Source of the DNA: Bdellovibrionales bacterium
Lineage (GTDB): Bacteria; Bdellovibrionota; Bdellovibrionia; Bdellovibrionales; UBA1609
Direction of reading: 5' to 3'
Length of the DNA stretch: 64,000 bases
NCBI GenBank assembly: GCA_041690295.1
Contig: JAWLHR010000010.1
Coordinates: 1 to 64,000, forward strand
Positions 37,186-62,677 of the stretch are shown in pieces (the stretch's first letter is position 1; each line of letters opens with the position of its first letter). Under the pieces are notes generated by a model that did no database searches, was not told the origin of the DNA, and was given only the letters and a program-made list of their open reading frames with translations. The position numbers were made by a program, and so were the translations under genes.

Positions 37186-38153
37186 GAACTGCCCCACTAG
37201 CCTGCAGAAAATAATGGCGAGAATTTTGCCCTTAACCACCGGGCATGCGACCAAGCTGCCCCTATTGTAACTCATCCCCAGACATGTCCGATCGCCGGAT
37301 GCGTATTCTGAAAGCCGGATTTTTCCGCCGAACCTCCGACGGAAAAAGAGTGCGAAGATTTTATTGCGTTAGCTGCTCTAGATACTTTTCCCGTGCCACC
37401 TTTCACCCCTGCTTTAGGCAAAAAAAGCGCCACCTCAATCACCGCATCAACAAACTTTTAGCTTCAAGCGTTTCCCAGCGCCGAATCGCAAAACTGCTTC
37501 ACATTTCCCGAACCACGGTTGAACGAAAGTTTCTTTTTCTGGGCCAAAAAGCAGTGCATGAACTTGAACATCAAAACAAATCCAGTCCCCTGGCCACTGT
37601 TGTTGAATTTGATGAGCTTGAAACCTTCGAGCACACAAAGTGTAAACCGCTTTCCGTTCCGCTAGCCGTTGAATCAAAAACCAGAAGAATCTTAGGCTTC
37701 CAAGTGGCCCAGATGCCGGCCAAAGGAAAGCTCGCCCGTATCTCACGTAAAAAATATGGACCAAGACCAGACTTCAGGCCAAAAGCATTGAGTGATCTTT
37801 GTGAGAGTTTAAAGCCACTCACCACACCCGATGTGCAATTCAAATCCGATCAAAATCCAATGTATCCGGAAATCTTAAGACGTCACTTTCCTTTAAACCC
37901 ACACGAGCGCTTTAAAGGGCAAAGAGGTTCGATTGTCGGACAGGGGGAGTTAAAGAAGATCCGATTTGATCCGCTTTTTAGCTTGAATCACACGTGTGCG
38001 ATGCTTCGAGCCAATATCAATAGGCTAGTGCGGAAGACTTGGTGCACAACGAAAGTTCCGCATAGATTGCGCCTCCATCTCGCCATCTATGCGGTTTATC
38101 ACAATAATATGATTCGGGCTGGGCCTTCAGGTGCAGGCTAGTGGGGCAGTTCT
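37185..38153 (+). mobile_element. Complete ~969-bp IS1-like insertion sequence with 22-bp perfect terminal IRs
   Basis: IRL agaactgccccactagcctgca (37185-37206) and IRR tgcaggctagtggggcagttct (38132-38153); a second copy lies at 1-228. Confidence 0.92.
37245..38141 (+). CDS. IS1-like transposase (Zn ribbon, HTH, DDE-type domain) in a single ORF
   Basis: CPYC...CVSC, SQRRIAKLLHISRTTV, FDELETF, KSD and RLVRKTWCTTK motifs; the stop codon lies inside IRR. Confidence 0.88.
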   Translation: MRPSCPYCNSSPDMSDRRMRILKAGFFRRTSDGKRVRRFYCVSCSRYFSRATFHPCFRQKKRHLNHRINKLLASSVSQRRIAKLLHISRTTVERKFLFLGQKAVHELEHQNKSSPLATVVEFDELETFEHTKCKPLSVPLAVESKTRRILGFQVAQMPAKGKLARISRKKYGPRPDFRPKALSDLCESLKPLTTPDVQFKSDQNPMYPEILRRHFPLNPHERFKGQRGSIVGQGELKKIRFDPLFSLNHTCAMLRANINRLVRKTWCTTKVPHRLRLHLAIYAVYHNNMIRAGPSGAG

Positions 38154-49425: not shown

Positions 49426-50238
49426 TTAGAGGTTGCACTCTTTAGCCAGGTGTAAACGGCTTTGGATGTACTCCTGAAGTCGGGTCGGAGTCATCGTTCC
49501 GTCCGAAGCTTTCACCACGCGGCCCGTGGACGGGTCGGTGACTTCGTCGTTCGCCAAAGCGGCGGCCAAGCATTCAGCGCCCACTTTTTCGCGCTCAGCT
49601 TGGGGCAAATTCTTCGCACCAGCTTTGAATTCGCAAACCTGCATTTCAATGGCATTCACTTGCGCCTGAACGCCCATTTTCTCGAGGTTCTTACCGGCGG
49701 CACAGGAACCGAGAGTCACGTAACCGGCTTGGCGCGCGGAAAGGATATCATCGTAAGAAGGATAAACGCGGATTCCGGATTTTTGAAAACGCTCGGTCAA
49801 GCGGCGGGCGATTTCTTCGTCTTTGTCGTTGATGCCGCAAGTTTGACCATTCAACGCTTCATCGACCGCGGAACGAGTGGTGGTATCTTTCACCACCGCG
49901 GCCAACTGAATCATTTGACCTTTGGGAGCGAAAATCGATTTGGCGAGTTGTTCGTTTTGCGATTTGGCTTGAATCGAGTTGCCGGCGACATAGCCGCTGT
50001 TGAACTTGTTCACCAAGCTCAACAAGGCCGCTTGTTCAGCGCCACTCAGTTTGGCCATGGCGGCATTCAAATCGGCGGCCGTCATACTGGAAACACCCAA
50101 GGTTTGTTGCAAGAACTGCTGGCCCATACGTGTGGTCGCCAATTTCTCCAGCTGCGCTTGAGCGGCTTGAGCGAACGCTTGCGACTGAACGGCCAGTGCG
50201 ATGAATCCGCAGACTGCCAACTTCATAAATGCCTTCAT
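49426..50238 (-). CDS. Secreted Ala/Gln-rich helical hypothetical protein
   Basis: Signal MKAFMKLAVCGFIALAVQSQAFA; GGAAGG RBS; 5 Cys in the mature part. Confidence 0.8.
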   Translation of the reverse strand: MKAFMKLAVCGFIALAVQSQAFAQAAQAQLEKLATTRMGQQFLQQTLGVSSMTAADLNAAMAKLSGAEQAALLSLVNKFNSGYVAGNSIQAKSQNEQLAKSIFAPKGQMIQLAAVVKDTTTRSAVDEALNGQTCGINDKDEEIARRLTERFQKSGIRVYPSYDDILSARQAGYVTLGSCAAGKNLEKMGVQAQVNAIEMQVCEFKAGAKNLPQAEREKVGAECLAAALANDEVTDPSTGRVVKASDGTMTPTRLQEYIQSRLHLAKECNL

Positions 50239-50529: not shown

Positions 50530-51723
50530 CTAAAACGTAATCTGTCCGGTGTTTGGGTCGCGGCACTCATAAATCGGTGAAATCAGCATCGTCGAGTCGG
50601 GGATGAGGTCGCAGCGCGGGCGTTCGGCTCGGTAAATCAGAACCTCTAAATCGCTCCAGTAGGCCTTTTTCGCCTTGGCAAGTAAGCGATCCGCGGCGGC
50701 CTTGGCCTGCACGTTCGCGGGAAAGTTGTTCCGTAAAAACAAACTGGCTCCGAGCCACACGGCGGCGGCACCCTGGCAGTATTCGCCGCGGTTAAACCGA
50801 CCCAAGATGCTGGAAGTTTGGCCCGAGAAAAAGGCGCTCACGTCTTCGAGGCACTTGGGGCTGGATCGCGGGGCATTTTGCCCGCTTTCCCTCAGGTACA
50901 ACTCAAAATCGTAAAAATATCCCAGCCGTTCACTGGCGCGATAAAACTCTTCGACTAGAATATCCCGGCCCACGCCTTCCGCGTTCTTCAGTTGCGCTTT
51001 GATCGTGGTTAAACGTTGAGTCAGTTCCAAGTTCCGAGCCTGCCACATCCCATACTCCATCGCCTCCGAGGCCCCCCAAGCCGCGACGCCAATCAGTAGG
51101 ACCTGTTTCAGCAGGCGCGAGGCGGATTGCAGTCTCGTCGCGGTGAGATCAAGGAACGACTTGGTCGAAGCCAGAGCCGCCACCAAACCGCCGCCCACGC
51201 CGGCCAGAGTGGCGTAGGCCTTTTGGCGCTCCTGATAAAGCGCCTCGGAGAGTTCACGATCACTCGAGGCCAACCCACTTAAAATCTCGTAGGGACCTGC
51301 GGGAATCCGGTTCGGAGAGGGCGGGAGGATCTCATTGTATAAGCGGATTTCCTCGCGCATCCGTTCATAACTCTGCAACAGGTTCAAACTGGCGATGGAA
51401 TAGGCCAACTGGGCGCGATTGAAACTGCGCTTCAATCGGCTCAGCTTAATGGGGTCAAGGTACTTGGACACCCACATGGTTTGACAGGTGTTCAAGGCAT
51501 AGCGGGCCGCTTCAGGGTAAGTGTTCCAGTAATAACCCAATTCACGAATGGAGGTCTCGTAATCTTTGGTGGGCCAGGTGGCGAAGATTCTCTCACAAAG
51601 TTGATAGGCGCCGGCCGCCCGCTCGAGTTCCTGAGCGCCTTCGAACTTCTGCACGAAGTCCAGCGCTTCGCTGGCCTGCGCGGAAAACCCGATCAAGCTG
51701 AAACAAAGAATCAGAAACTTCAC
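50530..51723 (-). CDS. Secreted helical protein with hydrophobic hairpin (operon gene 5)
   Basis: GTG start overlapping the upstream TGA, AAGGAG RBS, signal MKFLILCFSLIGFSAQA, two internal hydrophobic helices. Confidence 0.8.
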   Translation of the reverse strand: MKFLILCFSLIGFSAQASEALDFVQKFEGAQELERAAGAYQLCERIFATWPTKDYETSIRELGYYWNTYPEAARYALNTCQTMWVSKYLDPIKLSRLKRSFNRAQLAYSIASLNLLQSYERMREEIRLYNEILPPSPNRIPAGPYEILSGLASSDRELSEALYQERQKAYATLAGVGGGLVAALASTKSFLDLTATRLQSASRLLKQVLLIGVAAWGASEAMEYGMWQARNLELTQRLTTIKAQLKNAEGVGRDILVEEFYRASERLGYFYDFELYLRESGQNAPRSSPKCLEDVSAFFSGQTSSILGRFNRGEYCQGAAAVWLGASLFLRNNFPANVQAKAAADRLLAKAKKAYWSDLEVLIYRAERPRCDLIPDSTMLISPIYECRDPNTGQITF

Positions 51724-52796
51724 GGTTTCTCCTTGATCTCGGCTTCGGTGGGTTCGCCAAAAGTGAGCGTAAGGTAACTTTCCAATTTCTCCAACTCTTG
51801 GTTCAAGTGAAGCATCGACATTTGTCGGCAACGGCCGTCGCGGCTGGTCTCGGCTTCACTCAATGCTTTTCTAAAATCCCGCCAGTTTTCCGATTGGGGG
51901 AATTGCTCCAGCACCTCGGCGAATAATCGGTCTTGCACGTCGAGGTTTTCCAGGCGGGGCCACTGCTCGGAAAGACCCTGAGCTTCAGCGCGAATTCTTC
52001 GGATCTCGGTCAGCATCGGGCCATACTCTTTTTCCAATTGGTCGGAATCATTCATCAGGGATTCGAATTTTTCCTGGATCGTCAGGGCCTGATAGGAAAG
52101 ATCGCAAGCGAGTTGCGCCTGAACCACCATCAACACAGTCGCGGGGTTGATCCGGTAGGTGGAGTTGGATTTCAGAACGTATTCGATGTAACCGCCAAGG
52201 GCGCCAAGACCGAGGCTTCCGCCGACAATCCAAGTGGTCGGACTGGTGGCGACACGATAACCGAGACTCGCAAAGCGGCCTTTTTGATTCAGAGTCAATT
52301 CGCGTTGACGGATCTGCCGCAAGAATTCCGCGGTGCTTTGACTGCGAGCGAAGATGAATTTCCAGCCGATCGCCCCCGCCAGCATCAACCATGCGCCGTA
52401 GGAATAAGCCCCTCGGATCACGTACTGCAGCGGTCCGTTCTGAAGCATTTTCGAGGCTTCGAAATCAGCGGCCAATTCCACTCCGAGCGTGTCCGCCAGC
52501 GATTTGATCGCGGCCCGATCCTCGGGTTGGTTCACATATTTGTCCATCATGTGGAACAAAAATAAATTGAACTCGTCGGGGCGGAGAGTGGCGAGTTGCA
52601 TGACAACCGCTTTGGCCAAAAATTCGTTACGGCCGACCGTGGACCAGGGGCTGTCCGACGGTAAACGGCGAACGTGACCGATGTAATCATCGAGAAGCTT
52701 GGCGGACCTTTCAAGCGGTTGTTGGGCGTTCACGCTAAAACTGGTTAAGGACAAGATCAAAGCCAAACCATGGATCAGAAGTTTCTTATAAATCAT
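51720..52796 (-). CDS. Secreted helical protein with hydrophobic hairpin (operon gene 4)
   Basis: ATGA coupling, AAGGAGG RBS, signal ending SVNA, hydrophobic YGAWLMLAGAIGWKFIF and WIVGGSLGLGALGGYIEYVL. Confidence 0.82.
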   Translation of the reverse strand: MIYKKLLIHGLALILSLTSFSVNAQQPLERSAKLLDDYIGHVRRLPSDSPWSTVGRNEFLAKAVVMQLATLRPDEFNLFLFHMMDKYVNQPEDRAAIKSLADTLGVELAADFEASKMLQNGPLQYVIRGAYSYGAWLMLAGAIGWKFIFARSQSTAEFLRQIRQRELTLNQKGRFASLGYRVATSPTTWIVGGSLGLGALGGYIEYVLKSNSTYRINPATVLMVVQAQLACDLSYQALTIQEKFESLMNDSDQLEKEYGPMLTEIRRIRAEAQGLSEQWPRLENLDVQDRLFAEVLEQFPQSENWRDFRKALSEAETSRDGRCRQMSMLHLNQELEKLESYLTLTFGEPTEAEIKEKP

Positions 52797-55700
52797 GGCG
52801 TGACCTCCTTAACCAACATGCGACGGAGTTGTTCGATTCGGTTCGCCGCCAGTTCGGGATGTTTTTCAATGTCCTGCATGATCCGGCGAGTGAGGGCGGC
52901 GATTTTATTTCCGGTCGTCGTGGTGCCGTAAAACTTGTCCATTTCTTTGAGGAACCAATGGCGAAGTTGATCGTCAAAGTGTTTGAAATTCAGATTCACT
53001 TGGTACTGGGACGTTTGACCGGTGGAATGCCAGACGCGTTCATAAAAAGATTTGAGCAGCGGACTTTTATCCATCTTGGTCCAAATCGGTGACAGCGACT
53101 GATACATATTGAAAATGGAATTTTTCAATTCGAGATATTCATAAGTGGCAATCTGTCCATTGGCATATTGCGCTTCAAGACGACCGAGAGTGTCGGCCAA
53201 GAGATCAGGGTTTTTGGCGGATGAGGGTGTAAGCCCCAATTTTTTATACGCCTCTTGGAATCGGGCATCGAACTTGGCCCATTTGCGGGCCTCTTTCCAC
53301 ACCATTCGCTCTATGCGGAAATAGGATTGCCGCGCGTAATGCGTGACCAATTCCGCCACGCGAGGGTCCTTTTGACTGCGCGCGATCCGCAAGCTTTCCC
53401 GATAAGCTTCACCCAGCGACTGCTCACCCATCGAGGCGCCTTCGCGTAGGTTTAATGTTCTCAGATCCTCGCGCAGACGGGAAAGTTCCCGTTGACCTAA
53501 TCCCTGCAAGCGTTCACCCACAACGCGGTTAAGCATGTGAAAGCCGCCGAAGATCACCGCCAGCAAGGCCACCTGACTGACGGCTTGGAAGCGGGCGTAG
53601 TTGCGGATTTGCGTCTGGCGCGTGACATCGGAATGGAGAGCCACGCAGGGCCCGGACGCATTACATGAGAAGTAATTTCTCAAAGTCTCCACGCGTTTCG
53701 CATCGGTGACGAAGCCGCGATAAGCGGGCTCACCCACACCGATGAAAATGGAGCCCCAAATGAGAGGCGTCAGGCGCGAAAGATTAATGCCGAAGATCGG
53801 AGATAAAGTTTTACTGACCATGTCCGCGGCTTTGGCCACCGGCATGAAGCGCATTCCGAAAATCTGAGCCAGATAAAAGGTGGCCAGAATCAGCATGGCG
53901 TTACCGGACCAGTTGTAAAACTGCCGCCACTCGTTTTCCCAGAATCCCGGTAAGAGCAGTTCCTGGCGAATCTTTTCGTAATACCCTTTGGCCGAACTGA
54001 ACGAGGAAAGAACCAGAGCCAGCTGTGACGTACGGCCGATGATTGTTTTTAATTCCTCGTCCATGCCATCAACGGGGTTGCGGCTGTTTTCAATTTTGCG
54101 CACATATTGATCGAGACGGATCAAATTCTTTTCCGCCTGACGGGCGGCCGCGGTGATTTGCGGATCCACCAAAGCCGAAATGTCGCCGGTTTCCGGTTGT
54201 TCGGCCAACACCTGCCAAAGAGGTTGTCCTGACACTTCAAATCCGAGGATCGGCGCTCCCGCGAAGAGATCATTCTTCAACGCGTCCTGATAGGTGCGTA
54301 ACTCGGACCCGATGAAGTTGGAAAACCACCGGTCACGCAAACCCAGTTGTTCGGCCGTCGGAGACTTTTTCTGTTCTTCGGACAGTTTTTCGTAAACGTT
54401 AAACTTAAGGATTTCACCGATTGAGAGAAGATCGGAAACATCTTTTTTGCGGATGTCGGCGTTTTGACTCAGGGCCTGTAGATATTCCTGAGCGATAATT
54501 CCATTGAGTTTTGTCGGTGCGAACCGGATTTCTCCCTTGATGGAAATCAGTTCGTCGATATCGAGTCCATTCATTTTGGGCAACTCATAGGCCTCAAGAA
54601 TCGTGAGTAGCGCGGACTTATAGGTGGAATATCCGTCTTGATAGGTTTGCGCTTGGCCGATTTGGGCAAGGACGTTTTGGGCCATCGCTGACGGCGCCAA
54701 GGCTTCGATCTCGGGCTGCTTGGCGGCGAGAAGAGTTTGCAAACGAATTTCTTTGGTGGCGAAATCCTTGAGCTCGCGGGCCTCATGGCGCAGATGGTTG
54801 TGAAAATCCAGGCGCTGTTTTTTCCGCATCTCAGCGCGTGTAACGCTGGCCGCGCGGCTGACGGCCGCCTGTAAGGATGGGAGCTTCGTGAGTTCATCGG
54901 CGAAATTCTTCGCGGCCTCATCGAGGATCTGTTCCAACTGAGCGCGATAGTTCGAAGTCAGGTCATGCATCGGCCCGACGAAGATCAACCAGCGCAAGGA
55001 AAGCCGTTTGGCGAAGTAAAGATGGCGATGTAACTCGCGAGCGGGGTCGCGAATATCCCAAAGCCGGAGAACTCCGTTCAAGGCCGCCAGGAAGGCTTGG
55101 GCTTCGTCCTTGCGAATGCCTTCGAGATTGATCCCTTCCATCTGGCCGCCGGTCATCTGGTAATAGCGGCGCCAAAAATCTTCATTGAGCACGAATCCCG
55201 AGCCCGCGCCTTCGAGTTCCTTGAGTCCGTTTTTCACCGCTTCTTCGAGAATGGCTTTTTGCTCCTTCAACTGCTGATTGAGGCTCACCCGGTTCATCAG
55301 GTCCCGCTTCACCTTGAAGCTGGGGAAACGGAGTTTCCAAGAAAGCTCCGGTTCGGGCATGTGATCCGCCTCGCGGCTTAACTCATTGGTGATATAGGCG
55401 GCCTCATACAAACGGTGGGCGGCGAAATGGGTGGCGAAGAGAACCGTGTTTTTGGTGTTGATTTGAGTGAGGAATCTCTGGCGTTCGGCGCGTTCGATAA
55501 AATCCGGATTCACTTCGAACTTCAATAATTGGCGGCCGTTTTGATCCTCAAGGCGGGTGCGCATGGGAAAATTGAGAGTGAGGCCGCTTTCCGTGTCGCC
55601 GTTTGAAGCCAAAGCCGTGAGCGAGGCGGTTTCAAAAAATTTAAGTTGGTCCAGGTGATCCAACGGGATCTGAATGGAATAACGGGTGTCCCATTCTTCG

Positions 55701-56104
55701 GGCAGCAGGGGTTGGCCGAGATAAACATTGAGCCCCTCATAGCGAGTGACGGCGTCGTAAAACGCCTTGATCTCACCGAGAGCGAAAAGTTCCTTGTCCG
55801 GATCGCGAATGGCGGTGAGTCGCGCCGGAAAGGTTTGGGAAATGCCACGATGAAGTTCGCCGAGTCGGGCTTCAATGGCCTGCAACTCGCTTCGGTTCGG
55901 TAAACCGAATCGGGCCAGTTGCGGAACATTCGGATAATAAGCCCGGTCAATCAATCGTTCGATATCGATGATCAAGTTCGTGGCGCGCGATAGAGCGCTT
56001 TCCTCTTCCGCGCCGTTGGTTTGCGCGTGAACCGGAGCGGGGAGAATCGTCAGCGGCGCAAACGTCAAACTCCAGCTTAAGGCGAAGCAAAGGAGACGCT
56101 TCAT
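52793..56104 (-). CDS. Large (1103 aa) secreted helical protein with C-terminal hydrophobic segments (operon gene 3)
   Basis: ATGA coupling, AAGGAG RBS, signal ending PVHA, about 3 hydrophobic helices in the last third. Confidence 0.85.
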   Translation of the reverse strand: MKRLLCFALSWSLTFAPLTILPAPVHAQTNGAEEESALSRATNLIIDIERLIDRAYYPNVPQLARFGLPNRSELQAIEARLGELHRGISQTFPARLTAIRDPDKELFALGEIKAFYDAVTRYEGLNVYLGQPLLPEEWDTRYSIQIPLDHLDQLKFFETASLTALASNGDTESGLTLNFPMRTRLEDQNGRQLLKFEVNPDFIERAERQRFLTQINTKNTVLFATHFAAHRLYEAAYITNELSREADHMPEPELSWKLRFPSFKVKRDLMNRVSLNQQLKEQKAILEEAVKNGLKELEGAGSGFVLNEDFWRRYYQMTGGQMEGINLEGIRKDEAQAFLAALNGVLRLWDIRDPARELHRHLYFAKRLSLRWLIFVGPMHDLTSNYRAQLEQILDEAAKNFADELTKLPSLQAAVSRAASVTRAEMRKKQRLDFHNHLRHEARELKDFATKEIRLQTLLAAKQPEIEALAPSAMAQNVLAQIGQAQTYQDGYSTYKSALLTILEAYELPKMNGLDIDELISIKGEIRFAPTKLNGIIAQEYLQALSQNADIRKKDVSDLLSIGEILKFNVYEKLSEEQKKSPTAEQLGLRDRWFSNFIGSELRTYQDALKNDLFAGAPILGFEVSGQPLWQVLAEQPETGDISALVDPQITAAARQAEKNLIRLDQYVRKIENSRNPVDGMDEELKTIIGRTSQLALVLSSFSSAKGYYEKIRQELLLPGFWENEWRQFYNWSGNAMLILATFYLAQIFGMRFMPVAKAADMVSKTLSPIFGINLSRLTPLIWGSIFIGVGEPAYRGFVTDAKRVETLRNYFSCNASGPCVALHSDVTRQTQIRNYARFQAVSQVALLAVIFGGFHMLNRVVGERLQGLGQRELSRLREDLRTLNLREGASMGEQSLGEAYRESLRIARSQKDPRVAELVTHYARQSYFRIERMVWKEARKWAKFDARFQEAYKKLGLTPSSAKNPDLLADTLGRLEAQYANGQIATYEYLELKNSIFNMYQSLSPIWTKMDKSPLLKSFYERVWHSTGQTSQYQVNLNFKHFDDQLRHWFLKEMDKFYGTTTTGNKIAALTRRIMQDIEKHPELAANRIEQLRRMLVKEVTP

Positions 56105-57957
56105 TGTCCATCTCCTTCCATCGCCAAACGGCCGAAGAGCGCGAGCGCGATTTGATGCTCGTTAATGCCCATGGTGTAGACGTGATCAAAAAAGGATCTC
56201 GCGCCAAGCTGAATGGCTTTTTGTTGCTCTTCGGAGTCGAAATGCATTCCGTATTGGTCACGGATCTCCGGGTGAAGTGCCGCGTACTGAATGGACAAAA
56301 CGTCGCGGGCGGTTTCCGCCACCTCGATCTCCGTCTTTAAGAGTGAAGCGAGCGGGGCGGGGAACTGTAAATTCACGTCATTGCGAAGCGAGGTTAAATG
56401 ATCGATGTCCCGATTGTAAAACCCGAGGACTTGACCGGACATTTGCGCGAGAACGCTTTTCCCCTCATTGATAATGGCTTTGGCTTTTTCGAGCTTGCGG
56501 AGTTGTGTTTCATGGGGGATTTCGCAATTCGAAGAGCGGCAGAATTTTTCTCGCGCGGATTTGAGAGTTAAGATTTCCCCATTTTCGTTGACGGTCAAAG
56601 CGTCGCGGAATTCGGATTTTTGAATCACATGGCGGATCAGTTCCACCGTGGTTTCGGCGTCATCGACCTTCTGGCTCAGCTCGAAATATTTTTCCACCGC
56701 CACGTTCGCCCAGTTTTCGCGGTTCTTACGTAACATGGGAAGAATTCGGCGGAAACGGGTTTCCCACGGAGTTCTGTAACCGGGTTGAAAACGACGATCC
56801 AAGCTGAAGGCTTGCGCGGTGACACCGAGGTGATAATCCGTGATGGCGTGGGATTGCGAAGCCATCCACGCGCGCGCGTTCTGAATCAATTCGGTTAAGC
56901 GGGCGCCGATTTCAAGATCGGGAAAATAAATCGACGCGTAGGAAATTCCCGCGCCGAAAGCGGTGGCGACGAAGAGACTCGCCGCCCAGATCGAAACGCT
57001 TGAAAGTCCCGCGGCGGTCGCGGCGGCCGCACCCGCCGAACTTCCGACGTTCATCGCGGCGATCAACAAACCTAAATTCACGATCAACTCGCCACGGGCC
57101 ACACCAAAGCGCCAGCCATTGTAAAGCCAGGTGTTGCGAAGCTCGGGGTCAACCAGAAGAATATTTCGCATGTTCTGAAAGATTTCCGCCGCGAGCCGGC
57201 CTTCCTCCGTCTGTTTGAATGCGTGCCATTCACCGCTCAGCCATTTCTCAACCGCGCGACCGAAAAGCCCATGGGCCATTTCGAGCCGTGTTTTATTGAT
57301 CGCGCCGTTTTGAAGAGCGGCCACATTGGCCGCTTGAGTCCAAAGTTGGCCGGTCATGATGAAACCACCGACCATGAGGAACGAGGCGGCCATGGTGCCG
57401 ATCGTTTGAATCAACACCGCCCGTGAGGGATTGGACTTGAGCAAAAAGTTGAGCGCCTGCAGGGCCGTGAACTGGGTGCCGATGCGAACGGCGGCTCCGC
57501 CCGCGACACCAATCCAAAACTCTCCGGAACATAAGATTTCTTTGTGCACGCTGGCCGGGCCCTGGCAAAAAAGATCCTCGGCGGCCTTCATCGTGTGCTT
57601 TTTCACATTTTCATATTCAAGCTTTTGACCGGCGAGCAGCTCTTCTTTTTCGATACGATCACGGGCGAGCTGGGCGGCCGCGGCCATGTACATGATGATC
57701 GCGCCTTGGAGGACATCGTAGACCAGAGTGAATCCGGCCTCGCGGCCGACGGAGGCCAAAACTTTCGCCGCTTTTTCACTTAAGGCGCGTGAATTCCCGC
57801 CATATCGGGTGAGGACGACGGTGTTCGCCAAAGCGCCATTTTGCAGGCGTAAAACATCCTGAGGGGTGACCCGGCGGGCGGCGGACGAGTGCGCCAGAGT
57901 CGGCTGGGCCGCCAGGAGCGCACTCATGATAAAACTAATCGCCGCTTTCCACGCCAT
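56101..57957 (-). CDS. Secreted protein with multiple Ala/Gly-rich hydrophobic segments (operon gene 2)
   Basis: Signal ending PTLA; a ~55-aa hydrophobic tract plus three more segments; 12 nt after the ATPase stop. Confidence 0.85.
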   Translation of the reverse strand: MAWKAAISFIMSALLAAQPTLAHSSAARRVTPQDVLRLQNGALANTVVLTRYGGNSRALSEKAAKVLASVGREAGFTLVYDVLQGAIIMYMAAAAQLARDRIEKEELLAGQKLEYENVKKHTMKAAEDLFCQGPASVHKEILCSGEFWIGVAGGAAVRIGTQFTALQALNFLLKSNPSRAVLIQTIGTMAASFLMVGGFIMTGQLWTQAANVAALQNGAINKTRLEMAHGLFGRAVEKWLSGEWHAFKQTEEGRLAAEIFQNMRNILLVDPELRNTWLYNGWRFGVARGELIVNLGLLIAAMNVGSSAGAAAATAAGLSSVSIWAASLFVATAFGAGISYASIYFPDLEIGARLTELIQNARAWMASQSHAITDYHLGVTAQAFSLDRRFQPGYRTPWETRFRRILPMLRKNRENWANVAVEKYFELSQKVDDAETTVELIRHVIQKSEFRDALTVNENGEILTLKSAREKFCRSSNCEIPHETQLRKLEKAKAIINEGKSVLAQMSGQVLGFYNRDIDHLTSLRNDVNLQFPAPLASLLKTEIEVAETARDVLSIQYAALHPEIRDQYGMHFDSEEQQKAIQLGARSFFDHVYTMGINEHQIALALFGRLAMEGDGQ

Positions 57958-57969
57958 CGCGACTCCGTA

Positions 57970-60534
57970 TTACCTGCGACCGCGGCGGATCACGCGAGCC
58001 GTGGCGTTACGAACCATGATATCCGGATCAAACTTCCTGAAGTAACGGGGGCGCGTTTCCGGAGTGAGTTCTTGTCCGCGTTGGGCGAGACGGTTTCGAA
58101 TCTGGTTGAGCCGGTCGTCACGCCACTTATCGCCTTCACTCACGGCGCGGGCGTAGATCTTGTTATCGGCGATCACGAAATCAAAGCGTCCGTCTTTGAA
58201 GTCCACCAGCACGACATCGCCGGATTTGAATTTACGGCTGACCGCCAGGTAATCCACGGGCGCCCGGATCTGTCCTTTAATTGTATTCACGATTCTTCGC
58301 GCGCCTTCGGTGGGACTGTAGGCCCGTTTCAACGCTTCCACCGCGGACTCGGAAAGCACGAGACGAACGCCGTCGATGAGTCGCAGTTCGCGCGCGTAAG
58401 CCTTGATTTGATCGTGGACGATTTGTTCGACCACTTCGGGCGTGTGATTGTTGGTGGTCATGATGTCGTTGAAGCGCGCGACCTCGGCCTCGCTCCACAT
58501 CGCGCGAAGCTCGGCTTTGACGGCTTCATTGCGCAGCTCGTGCAAAGGCAGATTTTCGATTCGGGAAACCAGTCCCGGCGCGTGTTCGGTGAAAAACTGG
58601 ATCAGTTCGGCGCGATTCATTTGCGTGAAACGCTCACCCGCGTTGGTGGTGAAGATCATGATACAGTCGTCGAACATGACCGTTCGGCCTTGGCCGTCGG
58701 TCAATCGCGCATCGTCCATGAGTCCCATCAACGCCCTCATCACGTTGGGATGGGCTTTTTCGATTTCGTCGAAAAGGATCACGCGGAACGGCCGCTCGCG
58801 CACGGGCTCGGTGAGTTCGCCGCCGGCTTCATAACCGACATAGCCGGGAGGCGCCCCGATGAGGCGATCCACGGAGTGCGCGGATTGATAGATGTTCATG
58901 TCGAAGCGGAGCATGTCTTTTTCAGCGATTCCCAAAGTTTTCGCCAATTGTTTGGCGAATTCCGTTTTACCCGTACCGGTACGGCCGGCCAAAAGAGCGA
59001 CCCAGATGGGCTTTCGCTTGGGTTCCTCGCCATGGAGTCGGGCCAAGGCTTCCTGACGGCGGCGGTTCTCGCGATAGGAGGCGAGAGCCAGAGCGGCCCG
59101 GTCGATAATGTGGTCCTGATTGCGAATGACGGTTTTGATCTGGTCGATGTTTTTGACCGCTTCTTCAATGTTCACGGCCAGGGCGGAAACGGGGATTTTA
59201 AGAATATCAGCGGCCACCAGTTGAATTTGTTTGGGGCCGACCATGGTCGGCGGCTTTTCGGCCTGCACGGATTCAAGTTGCACAAGCTTCAGCTCGCGAA
59301 TTCTCTCGTTGAGCTTGACGATCATTTCTTTTTCGAAGGTGGTGTCGGGCCGGTTCAAAATTCCGCGGCCTTGTTCTTTAGCCTGACGGATTTGCTCAAC
59401 TTCGGCGAGTTGCATTTCGAGAGTGGTGATCTCCCGGGCCGTGTCGGCAACCGGCGTTTGCAGTTCGCCGAGCCGTTGTTGCAATTTGGTGGCTTCCGCT
59501 TGCAATTCCGCGAGACGGCGGCTTTGTTCCGCGTTTCGCTGGATCTGCAAATCCTCGGCGATGGAGGCCATTTCCGCTTCCACCTGGGAGAGCTGGGTTT
59601 TTAGTTTCGCGGCTTCGGTGCCGTCTTGTTGTTCCGCCCGCACGCGTTGCCCGGCCTGGCGAACGAGGGTCTCGGCGAAATCAAAAGGGGAATTCGCCTT
59701 GTAACGGATCGCGAGTCGCGCGGCCTCGGTCAGCGACGCATCGGAAACGTGAATGCCCAGCTGGCGGCGAAGATCGGGCTTGATCCGGCGCAAGTGGGTG
59801 ATCACCGCATCGTAGGTGGCGGATTTAATTTCCACCGTGGTGACGCGTTCATAGATCACTTTGTTATTGAAGAAGTTTTGCGCGTGGGTTTGCGCATCCA
59901 TCTCGAGAATCATCGGCAGCTGACGGCCGCCGGCGATGGCCTCGATCAAAGCGCCGACCGGGCGGAGTTGCTCGAACGCGCCCTGGGCGAGATAGCCGGT
60001 GTTTTCGACGTAAAGAATCACCTGACCGGTGGTGGTGTTGCGAGCGGTCTGCTCCAGATGGAGGATCACGCTCTTGAGCATGCGTGTTTGATCTTCCTTG
60101 CTGCGCAACTCGAAAAACTTATCCATCTTCAGGCGGTAAACGGGATTTTGCGGGTTTTGGAGGATGTACTGGTGAACCAAAGTCGTCTTACCCGATTTGG
60201 GATCGCCGACCACAAGAGCCGTTCGGGCTTTCTCGTCCAGCGCCAACTGCAGTTGCACAAGCTCGGTTTCGCGTCCAATGGCGGGTTGGATTCGTCCCTC
60301 TTCCGCTTGGCGGAGCACCCGGTGGGTCATGTTTTCCACGTAATCTTCAGCGCCGGCCAATATTCCGGCATCCGTCAGCGTTCCCGGTGGCTGGTTGGCG
60401 GGCCGGCTGGCCCCTGTCTGAGTGGGCGGCTGAGCCCCAACCTCAAAAGACAAAAAGCTAAGCAGAAGTGCCGAGAATAGGACCGCAACGAACCCGATTC
60501 GAACCCAGGATCGAAACCAAGCGAGATTCATCAT
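57970..60534 (-). CDS. ClpB/Hsp100-like AAA+ ATPase with N-terminal signal peptide/anchor (operon gene 1)
   Basis: PAIGRE, GDPKSGKT, coiled-coil middle domain, GRTGTGKT, GAPPGYVGYE, ILFDEIEKAH, RLTDGQGRTV and GARR motifs; GGAGG RBS. Confidence 0.92.
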   Translation of the reverse strand: MMNLAWFRSWVRIGFVAVLFSALLLSFLSFEVGAQPPTQTGASRPANQPPGTLTDAGILAGAEDYVENMTHRVLRQAEEGRIQPAIGRETELVQLQLALDEKARTALVVGDPKSGKTTLVHQYILQNPQNPVYRLKMDKFFELRSKEDQTRMLKSVILHLEQTARNTTTGQVILYVENTGYLAQGAFEQLRPVGALIEAIAGGRQLPMILEMDAQTHAQNFFNNKVIYERVTTVEIKSATYDAVITHLRRIKPDLRRQLGIHVSDASLTEAARLAIRYKANSPFDFAETLVRQAGQRVRAEQQDGTEAAKLKTQLSQVEAEMASIAEDLQIQRNAEQSRRLAELQAEATKLQQRLGELQTPVADTAREITTLEMQLAEVEQIRQAKEQGRGILNRPDTTFEKEMIVKLNERIRELKLVQLESVQAEKPPTMVGPKQIQLVAADILKIPVSALAVNIEEAVKNIDQIKTVIRNQDHIIDRAALALASYRENRRRQEALARLHGEEPKRKPIWVALLAGRTGTGKTEFAKQLAKTLGIAEKDMLRFDMNIYQSAHSVDRLIGAPPGYVGYEAGGELTEPVRERPFRVILFDEIEKAHPNVMRALMGLMDDARLTDGQGRTVMFDDCIMIFTTNAGERFTQMNRAELIQFFTEHAPGLVSRIENLPLHELRNEAVKAELRAMWSEAEVARFNDIMTTNNHTPEVVEQIVHDQIKAYARELRLIDGVRLVLSESAVEALKRAYSPTEGARRIVNTIKGQIRAPVDYLAVSRKFKSGDVVLVDFKDGRFDFVIADNKIYARAVSEGDKWRDDRLNQIRNRLAQRGQELTPETRPRYFRKFDPDIMVRNATARVIRRGRR

Positions 60535-60679: not shown

Positions 60680-61021
60680 CTATCCCGGCGGCCAGGTCAT
60701 TTGCCGGCCACCGAGCACATGCACATGAATGTGCGGCACCGTTTGTCCGCCCTGGGGGCCGATGTTGATCACCAACCGGTAGCCGTCCTCGGAAATCCCA
60801 TGCTGGCGGGCGACCTCGGCGGCGACCCAGAGCAGGTGCCCCAGTATCGGTTTATCCTCCGGCGTGGCGTCCGCCACGGAGGGAATTTCTTTTTTCGGTA
60901 TCACCAGAAAATGTTTCGGCGCCTGCGGTTGAATGTCGACGAGTACGAAACAAAGATCGTCTTGATGGACGATCGTTCCTTGAAGTTCCCCGTTTAGAAT
61001 CCTGGTGAAAAGACTCGCCAT
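60680..61021 (-). CDS. Histidine-triad nucleotide-binding protein (HinT-like)
   Basis: DIQPQAPKHFLVIPK and GQTVPHIHVHVLGGR motifs. Confidence 0.95.
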   Translation of the reverse strand: MASLFTRILNGELQGTIVHQDDLCFVLVDIQPQAPKHFLVIPKKEIPSVADATPEDKPILGHLLWVAAEVARQHGISEDGYRLVINIGPQGGQTVPHIHVHVLGGRQMTWPPG

Positions 61022-61030
61022 TAGAACTCC

Positions 61031-62677
61031 CTACATCTGTTTGTAATCGGGACCGCTGCCGCCTTCGCGTGGCGTCCAGCGCGGGCCGAGCACATCCGTG
61101 GCTTTGCAGTCGATGCAGTTTGGTGCGTTCACCACGAGCTTATCGCCCTGTCTTTCATACACCCCCGCGGGGCAAACATGGGAGTAAAATTCCGCCAACT
61201 CACCGCTGATGTCCTGGCCGACGATCAAATGCTGGGGAATATCATCGCGCGTTTTATTGCTCGAGAGATAAACCGCATCCACTTTGCTCAAGCCCACTTT
61301 TTCCGTGGGGAAATCCGGTTCAGCGAATTCTTTGGCCTCTTTCGCGTCTTCTTCGACGAATTGATCACCGCCCGGGAAAGCGCCACCGGTGAGAGTCATG
61401 AGCGCCGCTTTCACGCCGCCGGCGTAAAAACCGCTTTTAAAGGCCTGGCGCATATTGCGAACCTTTTTCAAATCACTCCACACGAAACTCTCTTTGAGCT
61501 CCGTATCGAACGAACTCAGCATGTTTTTGCCGGTGTCTCCCGCTTTGAGAGCTTTGAAAATGGCTCGGGCGGCGAGAATTCCCGACATCATCGCATAGTG
61601 GATGCCTTTTAAAGCGGGAACATTAACCAGTCCCACGGCGTCGCCGATCATGACCAAACCGTCGCCGACGAAGGATTTCGGTAATGAATGGATGCCGCCT
61701 TCCGGAATGGTTTTCGCGCCCCATTCGATACATTGTCCGCCTTCGAGCAAGGGAGCGAAAAACGGATGTAGCTTCATGTGTTGCAGAAGTAGGTGCACAT
61801 CCAAGCGCGGATTTTTGTAATCGAGTCCCGCCACAAGGCCGATGGCCAATTGATCATCCGCCATGGGATACATGAAGCTTCCGCCGAAACAATCCTTGGG
61901 CAACGGCCAACCCAGCGTGTGCGCGATGAAGTCCGGGGCCTTTTTAACTTTCCAAATTTCCTTAACTCCCAGGGCGAAAATCTGCGCCGATGGTCCGCGA
62001 AGATTCTGCCATTCAACGTAGGATTGCGCCAAAGGACTTCGCGTTCCATCGGAGAGCACCACCACTTGAGCCGCGATGTCCGTGGCCGGCATGGCATTCG
62101 GCCCGGGAGTTCCATCGCGCTTCAGGCCGGCCGGTGTGGTTCGAACACCCACCACACGTTGATTTTCCGTGAGTAAGGAATCAACGGGAAAGCCGGTCAT
62201 GATGTTGACGCCAAGTTCTTCAGCTTTTTGTCCCAGCCAGCGCACCACTTCACAAAGTGAAGCGATGTAAAAGCCGTGATTTTTCATCGTCGGCGGCGTC
62301 GGCATGGGAATGGCCGAAGATTTGGTGAGATATAAAACCTTTTCGCCTTGAACGGGCCGGCGAAACGGGAAATCCGAATCTTTCAAGTCAGGAAACAGCG
62401 CGCGTAATGATACGGGATTTATCACCGCTCCTGAAAGCGAATGGCCGCCAAGCGCCGAGGCCTTTTCCAGAACTCCGATTTCGATCTGAAGTTGACCATC
62501 CTCTTTGACAAGCTTGGCCAACTCAATCGCGCCGGCCAAGCCGGCAGGGCCCGCGCCCACGAAAACCACATCGAAAGGAACGACGTCGTCACCTTCGGGC
62601 TTATGTTCAATGATGAATTTTGATTTTTCCAAAGCCGGCTGAAACCGAGCCGGTATCAATTGATTCGAGCTAGGCAT
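61031..62677 (-). CDS. Electron-transfer flavoprotein:ubiquinone oxidoreductase
   Basis: GAGPAG, GHSLSGA, GAKTIPEGG, KGIHYAM and CPAGVYE...NCIDCK motifs. Confidence 0.93.
   Translation of the reverse strand: MPSSNQLIPARFQPALEKSKFIIEHKPEGDDVVPFDVVFVGAGPAGLAGAIELAKLVKEDGQLQIEIGVLEKASALGGHSLSGAVINPVSLRALFPDLKDSDFPFRRPVQGEKVLYLTKSSAIPMPTPPTMKNHGFYIASLCEVVRWLGQKAEELGVNIMTGFPVDSLLTENQRVVGVRTTPAGLKRDGTPGPNAMPATDIAAQVVVLSDGTRSPLAQSYVEWQNLRGPSAQIFALGVKEIWKVKKAPDFIAHTLGWPLPKDCFGGSFMYPMADDQLAIGLVAGLDYKNPRLDVHLLLQHMKLHPFFAPLLEGGQCIEWGAKTIPEGGIHSLPKSFVGDGLVMIGDAVGLVNVPALKGIHYAMMSGILAARAIFKALKAGDTGKNMLSSFDTELKESFVWSDLKKVRNMRQAFKSGFYAGGVKAALMTLTGGAFPGGDQFVEEDAKEAKEFAEPDFPTEKVGLSKVDAVYLSSNKTRDDIPQHLIVGQDISGELAEFYSHVCPAGVYERQGDKLVVNAPNCIDCKATDVLGPRWTPREGGSGPDYKQM

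Follow-up and report, generated by a model that had tools for sequence, protein, structure and literature searches.

A ClpB-derived protein with a Sec-type leader in the place of Clp_N, encoded at the head of an operon of leader-bearing orphans in a Bdellovibrionales bacterium

Bacterial Clp motors require ATP and for that reason are regarded as cytoplasmic; a ClpB-type motor that begins with an export leader is therefore surprising. We asked whether gene A, which lies in a 64,000-nucleotide stretch of DNA from a Bdellovibrionales bacterium (hereafter, the window), encodes such a protein, and where its product would find ATP. The features of the gene are listed below.

57970..60534, minus strand: gene A, ClpB-derived AAA+ protein (P0001), 854 aa
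60542..60546, minus strand: ribosome binding site (RBS) GGAGG, 7 nt 5' of M1
60433..60534, minus strand: Sec-type signal peptide, residues 1-34 (n-region +2, h-region 13-30, V-G-A/Q)
60349..60432, minus strand: Pro/Gln/Thr-rich linker, approximately residues 35-62, at the position of Clp_N
59635..60348, minus strand: NBD1, approximately residues 63-300; Walker A retained, Walker B with EN for DE
59245..59634, minus strand: ClpB-type middle coiled coil, approximately residues 301-430; canonical ELxYG motif lost
58180..59172, minus strand: NBD2, approximately residues 455-785; Walker A, GYVG pore loop, Walker B DE, N631, R687 and R746 intact
58489..58638, minus strand: NBD2 exit-face insert, approximately residues 633-682, at the ClpP-docking-loop position of ClpA/ClpC; no IGF-like motif
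57973..58179, minus strand: C-terminal extension, 69 aa; basic tail with net charge +5 in the last 10 residues

Leader and motor architecture of gene A

Positions 60433-60534 correspond exactly to codons M1 to A34 of gene A. The n-region (residues 1-12) has a net charge of +2, contributed by R8 and R12, residues 13-30 form a single run of 18 uncharged hydrophobic residues, and V32-G33-A34/Q35 agrees with the -3/-1 rule for signal peptidase I; the basic n-region, h-region of about 18 residues and V-G-A site of the original prediction were thus all recovered. We scored the leader by eye and with a heuristic of our own (basic n-region, hydrophobic core, small residues at -3 and -1, no lipobox Cys, no twin Arg), and it has the character of a Sec/signal peptidase I substrate. 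The start had been assigned on the strength of the GGAGG, and that assignment stands, given that a comparable GGAGG at normal spacing precedes no other in-frame ATG, GTG or TTG through codon 100. A start farther downstream was rejected; the hydrophobic segment lies 3' of the RBS-supported M1. No second hydrophobic segment was found in the mature protein.

Pfam assigned AAA, AAA_2, AAA_lid_9 and ClpB_D2-small to gene A, with no Clp_N match at E≤0.01. The match to the ClpB model does not begin until residue 66, which bears out the earlier description of a Pro/Gln linker that runs straight into NBD1 without Clp_N. On these sequence criteria, we consider it confirmed that gene A is ClpB-derived and that its Sec-type leader, M1-A34, stands where Clp_N would be, as first proposed. 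Cleavage of the leader is predicted from its motifs and from conservation.

To place gene A in a family, we searched 41 related genomes and then 109 of the family, which gave 14 genomic members and one database protein; word-based protein searches returned mostly canonical Clp proteins and gained one close member, P0178. Our heuristic is strict, including an AxA rule and a hydrophobicity threshold of 2.0, and was passed by 12 of the 15 members. The misses were G249, whose start is unresolved, G041, which fails the strict AxA rule, and P0178, which at a hydrophobicity of 1.99 falls just short of the threshold. None of 26 canonical ClpB rows (22 distinct) passed, nor did more than 17 of 5000 shuffles of the gene A protein, while the background among genome ORFs of at least 300 aa was 190 of 1362. 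With G249 trimmed to a guessed start for these counts, an n-region charge of +1 to +3 followed by an uncharged run of 16 to 31 residues occurs in all 15 members. The basic-then-hydrophobic leader is therefore kept in all of the homologues examined, although its sequence drifts.

Beyond the Walker B change, the pore loop and arginine-finger region of gene A NBD1 are degenerate, and this ring is probably hydrolysis-dead. The middle coiled coil aligns with the ClpB middle domain, in which the ELxYG motif has a role in DnaK binding. Across the family, the Walker B DE of NBD1 is lost in 8 of 15 members, whereas Walker A, Walker B DE and the arginine finger of NBD2 are intact in 13. The two members with a broken NBD2, G041 and G077, both retain Walker A and DE in NBD1; every member has at least one ring with intact Walker motifs, and none has lost both. 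The pore-loop Tyr of NBD2 is absent in three members.

The exit side of the motor also differs from that of ClpB. The exit-face segment measures 63-85 aa in 13 of 15 members compared to 42 in the ClpB of the same genome, and 14 of 15 have a C-terminal extension of 55-72 aa compared to 3 in that ClpB (the extension of G011 may be cut by a contig end). A basic tail (net charge of at least +3) is present in 10 of 15 members, compared to 12.6% of 356 leader-bearing ORFs and none of the 26 ClpB rows. By analogy with ClpB and ClpA structures, insert and extension would both map to the exit side of the ring. Overall identity within the family falls to about 20%, and NBD2 identity is 30-58% among the closest five relatives compared to 77-81% for three ClpB rows. 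In an NBD2 tree, the 15 leader-bearing proteins occupy one side of a branch with support of only 83/84 and long branches, so that a single origin is possible.

The operon and its genome

Gene A is followed by five further genes on the same strand. Genes A to E abut or overlap, and all six products have leaders.

56101..57957, minus strand: gene B, 618 aa, all-helical orphan with a leader and three Gly/Ala-rich helices of moderate hydrophobicity
52793..56104, minus strand: gene C, 1103 aa, orphan with a leader and two internal hydrophobic segments
51720..52796, minus strand: gene D, 358 aa, orphan with a leader and two invariant Cys
50530..51723, minus strand: gene E, 397 aa (GTG start codon), orphan with a leader and six invariant Cys
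49426..50238, minus strand: gene F, 270 aa, Ala-rich orphan with a leader and Cys residues

Gene B lies directly 3' of gene A in 12 of the 14 genomes with an intact gene A 5' end, and in two more in which that end is cut. The exceptions are G011, cut by contig ends, and G018, where no recognised B follows gene A. The order A-B-C-D-E is kept in G004, G007, G016 and G002 and partly in G005 and G008; gene F is probably part of the unit, as G016 and G007 have a homologue in the corresponding position. Upstream of gene A, most relatives share the HIT-family and ETF-quinone oxidoreductase genes found at 60680-62677 (minus) in the window. A second operon type, A-B-X, occurs in G013, G009, G077, G249 and G041; X is a protein of approximately 800-1160 aa (cut by a contig end in G249), usually followed by a small leader-bearing gene. 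The X proteins are homologous to one another, and no homology between C and X was detected. Neither B to F nor X, the type II large protein, has a family in Pfam or NCBIfam. A scan for promoters and terminators gave results at chance level.

Gene B is more widespread than the operon. Among 20 distant B loci examined, 16 have no gene A upstream (four of these are cut by contig ends), which indicates that B is not an obligate partner. In G007, G006 and G005, B paralogues without gene A pair with a conserved leader-bearing orphan of 536-547 aa (L086:8118-11236, L087:8684-11852 and L090:5138-8301). A B profile matched 234 representatives. Within the genus, 10 of 17 relatives carry B; across the order, 27 of 301 genomes carry it and 10 of 301 carry C. 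This patchiness argues against the operon being a core predation machine; at the level of the phylum, B was found in 25 of 301 genomes, many weakly.

The invariant Cys of D and E (over five rows each) are expected in an oxidising compartment, and the hydrophobic segments of B and C score a moderate 1.55-1.65 on the Kyte-Doolittle scale. The divergence of A correlates with that of B (Spearman 0.90 on 10 pairs), as expected from shared descent alone. Fold models of B from 8 and 77 rows reached pLDDT 63.5 and 83.8, respectively, the latter all-helical. Foldseek returned no match to either model at E≤0.001, and VIA-align, in a comparison that hardly reached the N-terminal half, found at best (Z of about 10) generic helical bundles, among them syntaxin Habc with an rmsd of 4.0 over 153 residues. 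With respect to an EXP2-like pore fold among the partners, B, the one that was folded, thus matched generic bundles. PDB sequence searches with B or C found nothing meaningful, and ESM Atlas matches were all under 0.9. A complex prediction combining residues 430-854 of gene A, half of that protein, with residues 48-618 of B gave no answer (score 0.00).

The same genome encodes a canonical ClpB and a canonical ClpA separate from gene A, together with a single DnaK and a single ClpP, both without a leader. It also encodes a second leader-bearing Clp protein of 1285 aa (locus L127, G000:C8:28151-32008, minus), in which NBD1 and two NBD2-type modules, three AAA+ modules in all, precede a C-terminal HExxH M41 protease; its sequence predicts a self-contained exported ATP-dependent protease. 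In this Clp-M41 family, 24 of 29 proteins pass the leader heuristic compared to none of 91 other matches, and nine further Clp-like proteins of other architectures in relatives begin, by eye, with leader-like segments. Taken together with gene A, these architectures suggest that predicted Clp export is recurrent in the lineage. Among loci L026, L027 and L029-L035 are proteins of 543-676 aa with a single NBD2, and three-module proteins, some of which have M41. In the small genomes of genera g37 and g3, the best Clp match often falls in frames of only about 700-790 aa, which are possibly ClpB without its N-domain.

Other leader-bearing or secretion-related genes were also noted. Locus L128 (G000:C4:99478-101475, minus) encodes a leader-bearing protein of 666 aa with a Dynamin_N GTPase match above the cut-off. 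The genome has four secretins, one of which lies 7 kb from a GspK-like gene on C7; a Tad-secretin N-domain model had no match. The type VI secretion (T6SS) sheath protein VipB had no match in this 99.9% complete genome, and the E. coli control was positive. A search for an ATP/ADP translocase was uninformative, given that its controls had no match. Of 447 leader-bearing ORFs, 9 carry the motif C-[ES]-x-[IALV]-L immediately after the leader and 8 carry it at the very C-terminus, whereas only 4 of 9045 internal windows contain it (example regions in G000 are C8:26971-42810 and C26:2017-19964), and most Clp-M41 family members end in a similar Cys motif. It is possibly a sorting tag. The idea that the operon is a general exporter of proteins with a terminal Cys motif was unsupported; gene A has no such motif. 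Elsewhere in the window, a 298-aa ORF at 37245-38141 (plus) has a zinc-ribbon start and resembles an IS1-type transposase by eye, and a similar fragment lies in region L016:6173-6838.

The four named operon loci belong to uncultured Pseudobdellovibrionaceae/Bdellovibrionales. A predatory lifestyle of the source organism, itself uncultured, is inferred from relatives in the order, given the predation-related gene clusters described across uncultured Bdellovibrionales in the accessible part of PMC10469934.

Where the motor would work

The leader, the loss of Clp_N, one intact ring, the rebuilt exit face and the conserved operon are all present in the sequence, and the likeliest reading of them is an enzyme that would run on prey ATP. 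Specifically, we favor, as a tentative account with a little less than an even chance, an exported threading motor that docks on its operon partners and is fuelled by prey ATP in the manner of HSP101 in PTEX. Gene A would be a ClpB paralogue re-routed through Sec, with the leader very probably cleaved after A34. Judging from its motifs, the mature protein would most likely be an ATP-driven ring motor in which ring 2 pulls and ring 1 serves as a passive tier. Because Clp_N and the DnaK-responsive motif of the middle domain have been lost, it would no longer be a DnaK-dependent disaggregase. The rebuilt exit face would plausibly, and with somewhat better than even prospects, dock on co-exported operon products with membrane-inserting helices, B being the first of them. 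We consider it evenly balanced whether the assembled machine would then thread or remodel proteins at a membrane outside the predator cytoplasm, drawing on prey ATP and staying unassembled until it meets that ATP. Clp rings need nucleotide to assemble. The machine would act like Plasmodium HSP101 on EXP2/PTEX150. In its fullest form, which is unlikely, A to F would be a bacterial counterpart of PTEX, an undescribed second-stage secretion or extraction system in which a Sec-exported ClpB ring sits on a new-fold pore in the prey inner membrane and threads proteins with prey ATP. The reference list of PMC13689555 includes a title on a B. bacteriovorus ATP transport system.

Several other accounts of the same features have to be weighed. 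The motor could stay in the producer's own periplasm, using low or local ATP as an assembly or quality-control factor for the B-E complex, a doubtful option but one to be taken seriously. Micromolar ATP is low for Clp motors, which counts against it, as does the genome's lack of a leader-bearing DnaK or ClpP, and the rapid divergence and patchy distribution of the family suit a prey-facing role better than housekeeping. On the other hand, a Sec leader by itself delivers only as far as the periplasm, and gene A lacks the terminal Cys motif found on some other leader-bearing proteins here. The premise that the periplasm lacks ATP also proved too absolute: the level in E. coli is low but not nil, at about 24 uM per 10^10 cells according to the available portion of a review (PMC7432876). 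Alternatively, gene A could be a free soluble effector that unfolds or disassembles prey proteins alone in the prey cytoplasm, with B-E as its delivery device or as separate effectors. B does occur without A, and the sister leader-bearing Clp has its own M41 protease; with the leader-bearing dynamin-like GTPase, the genome appears to export several NTP-dependent enzymes. We nevertheless regard this account as distinctly unlikely, since the loss of Clp_N and of the middle-domain motif takes away the usual substrate-entry controls, an exit face rebuilt in a conserved manner points to a dedicated partner, and gene A has no IGF-like loop with which to engage prey ClpP.

The two remaining accounts concern whether the protein leaves the membrane and whether it is still a motor. 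The 18-residue core of gene A could span a membrane as an uncleaved anchor, either N-in/C-out, giving a motor at the periplasmic face, or N-out/C-in, giving a tethered cytoplasmic motor that feeds B-E into export. The latter, raised in the original prediction as an alternative, would solve the ATP problem. The positive-inside rule is established, and by it the charge pattern of these leaders is N-in/C-out: all 15 members have positive charge ahead of the run, and in 12 of them the 15 residues that follow it are neutral or negative, whereas a C-in anchor would show the reverse. This pattern and the single hydrophobic segment make a cytoplasm-facing anchor unlikely. AxA-type sites in 13 of 15 members, and short cores with polar or Pro-containing c-regions in several, also speak against an anchor, and overall we find an uncleaved one quite improbable. 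Finally, the protein could be an ATP-independent relic, a periplasmic holdase or scaffold with decaying ATPase sites. The lost Walker B DE of NBD1, the two broken NBD2 rings and the long branches fit such decay; but no member has lost both rings, despite the low overall identity within the family, and a relic seems highly improbable.

The preferred account, an exported motor that docks on its partners and runs on prey ATP, would matter for how these predators handle protein. To our knowledge, the passage of proteins into or out of the prey cytoplasm by Bdellovibrio-type predators is little understood, and the operon is a concrete, testable candidate for such traffic across the prey cytoplasm boundary that has possibly converged on the malaria PTEX. 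A family that bears leaders, is catalytically conserved and belongs to a multi-gene exported module would imply ATP-driven protein remodelling outside the producing cell. Our full-text search of the literature found no report of exported bacterial Clp proteins, although secretome tables in supplements could list such proteins, and the accessible parts of PMC3239186, PMC12546842 and PMC11495043 make no mention of them. Sequence comparison indicates that the gene A family is a real variant of the Clp family inside an undescribed exported module.

Comparison with known Clp systems

Gene A has the tandem AAA+ modules and the AAA_2-type NBD2 with ClpB_D2-small of class I Hsp100/Clp proteins. Its best family and PDB matches are to ClpB/Hsp104 (TIGR03346; PDB 1qvr), with which it shares the order of NBD1, middle coiled coil and NBD2. 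The coiled coil is long in both, but that of gene A is without ELxYG. The TIGR03346 match covers residues 66-786, from profile position 156, and scores 250.7 bits, below the cut-off of 1232.1. ClpB has Clp_N where gene A has its leader, and two intact rings where gene A combines an NBD1 Walker B of EN with an intact NBD2; the exit-face insert and the basic C-terminal extension are gene A's own. The canonical ClpB label was therefore rejected for the missed cut-off, the missing Clp_N and the degenerate NBD1. ClpA and ClpC dock ClpP through an IGF/L loop in NBD2 that is absent from gene A, and that label was rejected; the pattern is found in 2 of 15 family members compared to 7 of 8 ClpA/ClpC rows. 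ClpV/TssH is a specialised Clp paralogue tied to a single secretion machine, as gene A would be, but ClpV is cytoplasmic whereas gene A bears a leader. Gene A scores 218.7 bits against the ClpV model TIGR03345 (cut-off 885) and lies on a separate branch of the NBD2 tree, and the ClpV label was also rejected, given this score and a genome without a T6SS sheath match.

A parallel in routing and docking would be Plasmodium HSP101/ClpB2, the motor of PTEX (PDB 6e10, 6e11), which the gene A family profile matched with E 3e-144. As far as the available text of PMC7355975 and PMC10433460 goes, HSP101 is a ClpB-type motor whose signal peptide takes it into the secretory pathway and whose C-terminal domains dock on EXP2/PTEX150, partners without homologues; unlike gene A, it has kept its N-terminal domain, and both of its rings are active. 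No homology was detected between B-E and either EXP2 or PTEX150. Because the gene A family is bacterial, it and HSP101 are likely independent in origin, and their likeness would be one of analogy only. Torsin and human CLPB/SKD3 are Clp-NBD2-related AAA+ proteins that a targeting peptide takes out of the cytosol, each with a single AAA+ ring and working in eukaryotic compartments that contain ATP. The Torsin Pfam model matches the sister Clp-M41 protein and not gene A. Gene A would likewise be routed by a leader, but it has two AAA+ modules compared to their one.
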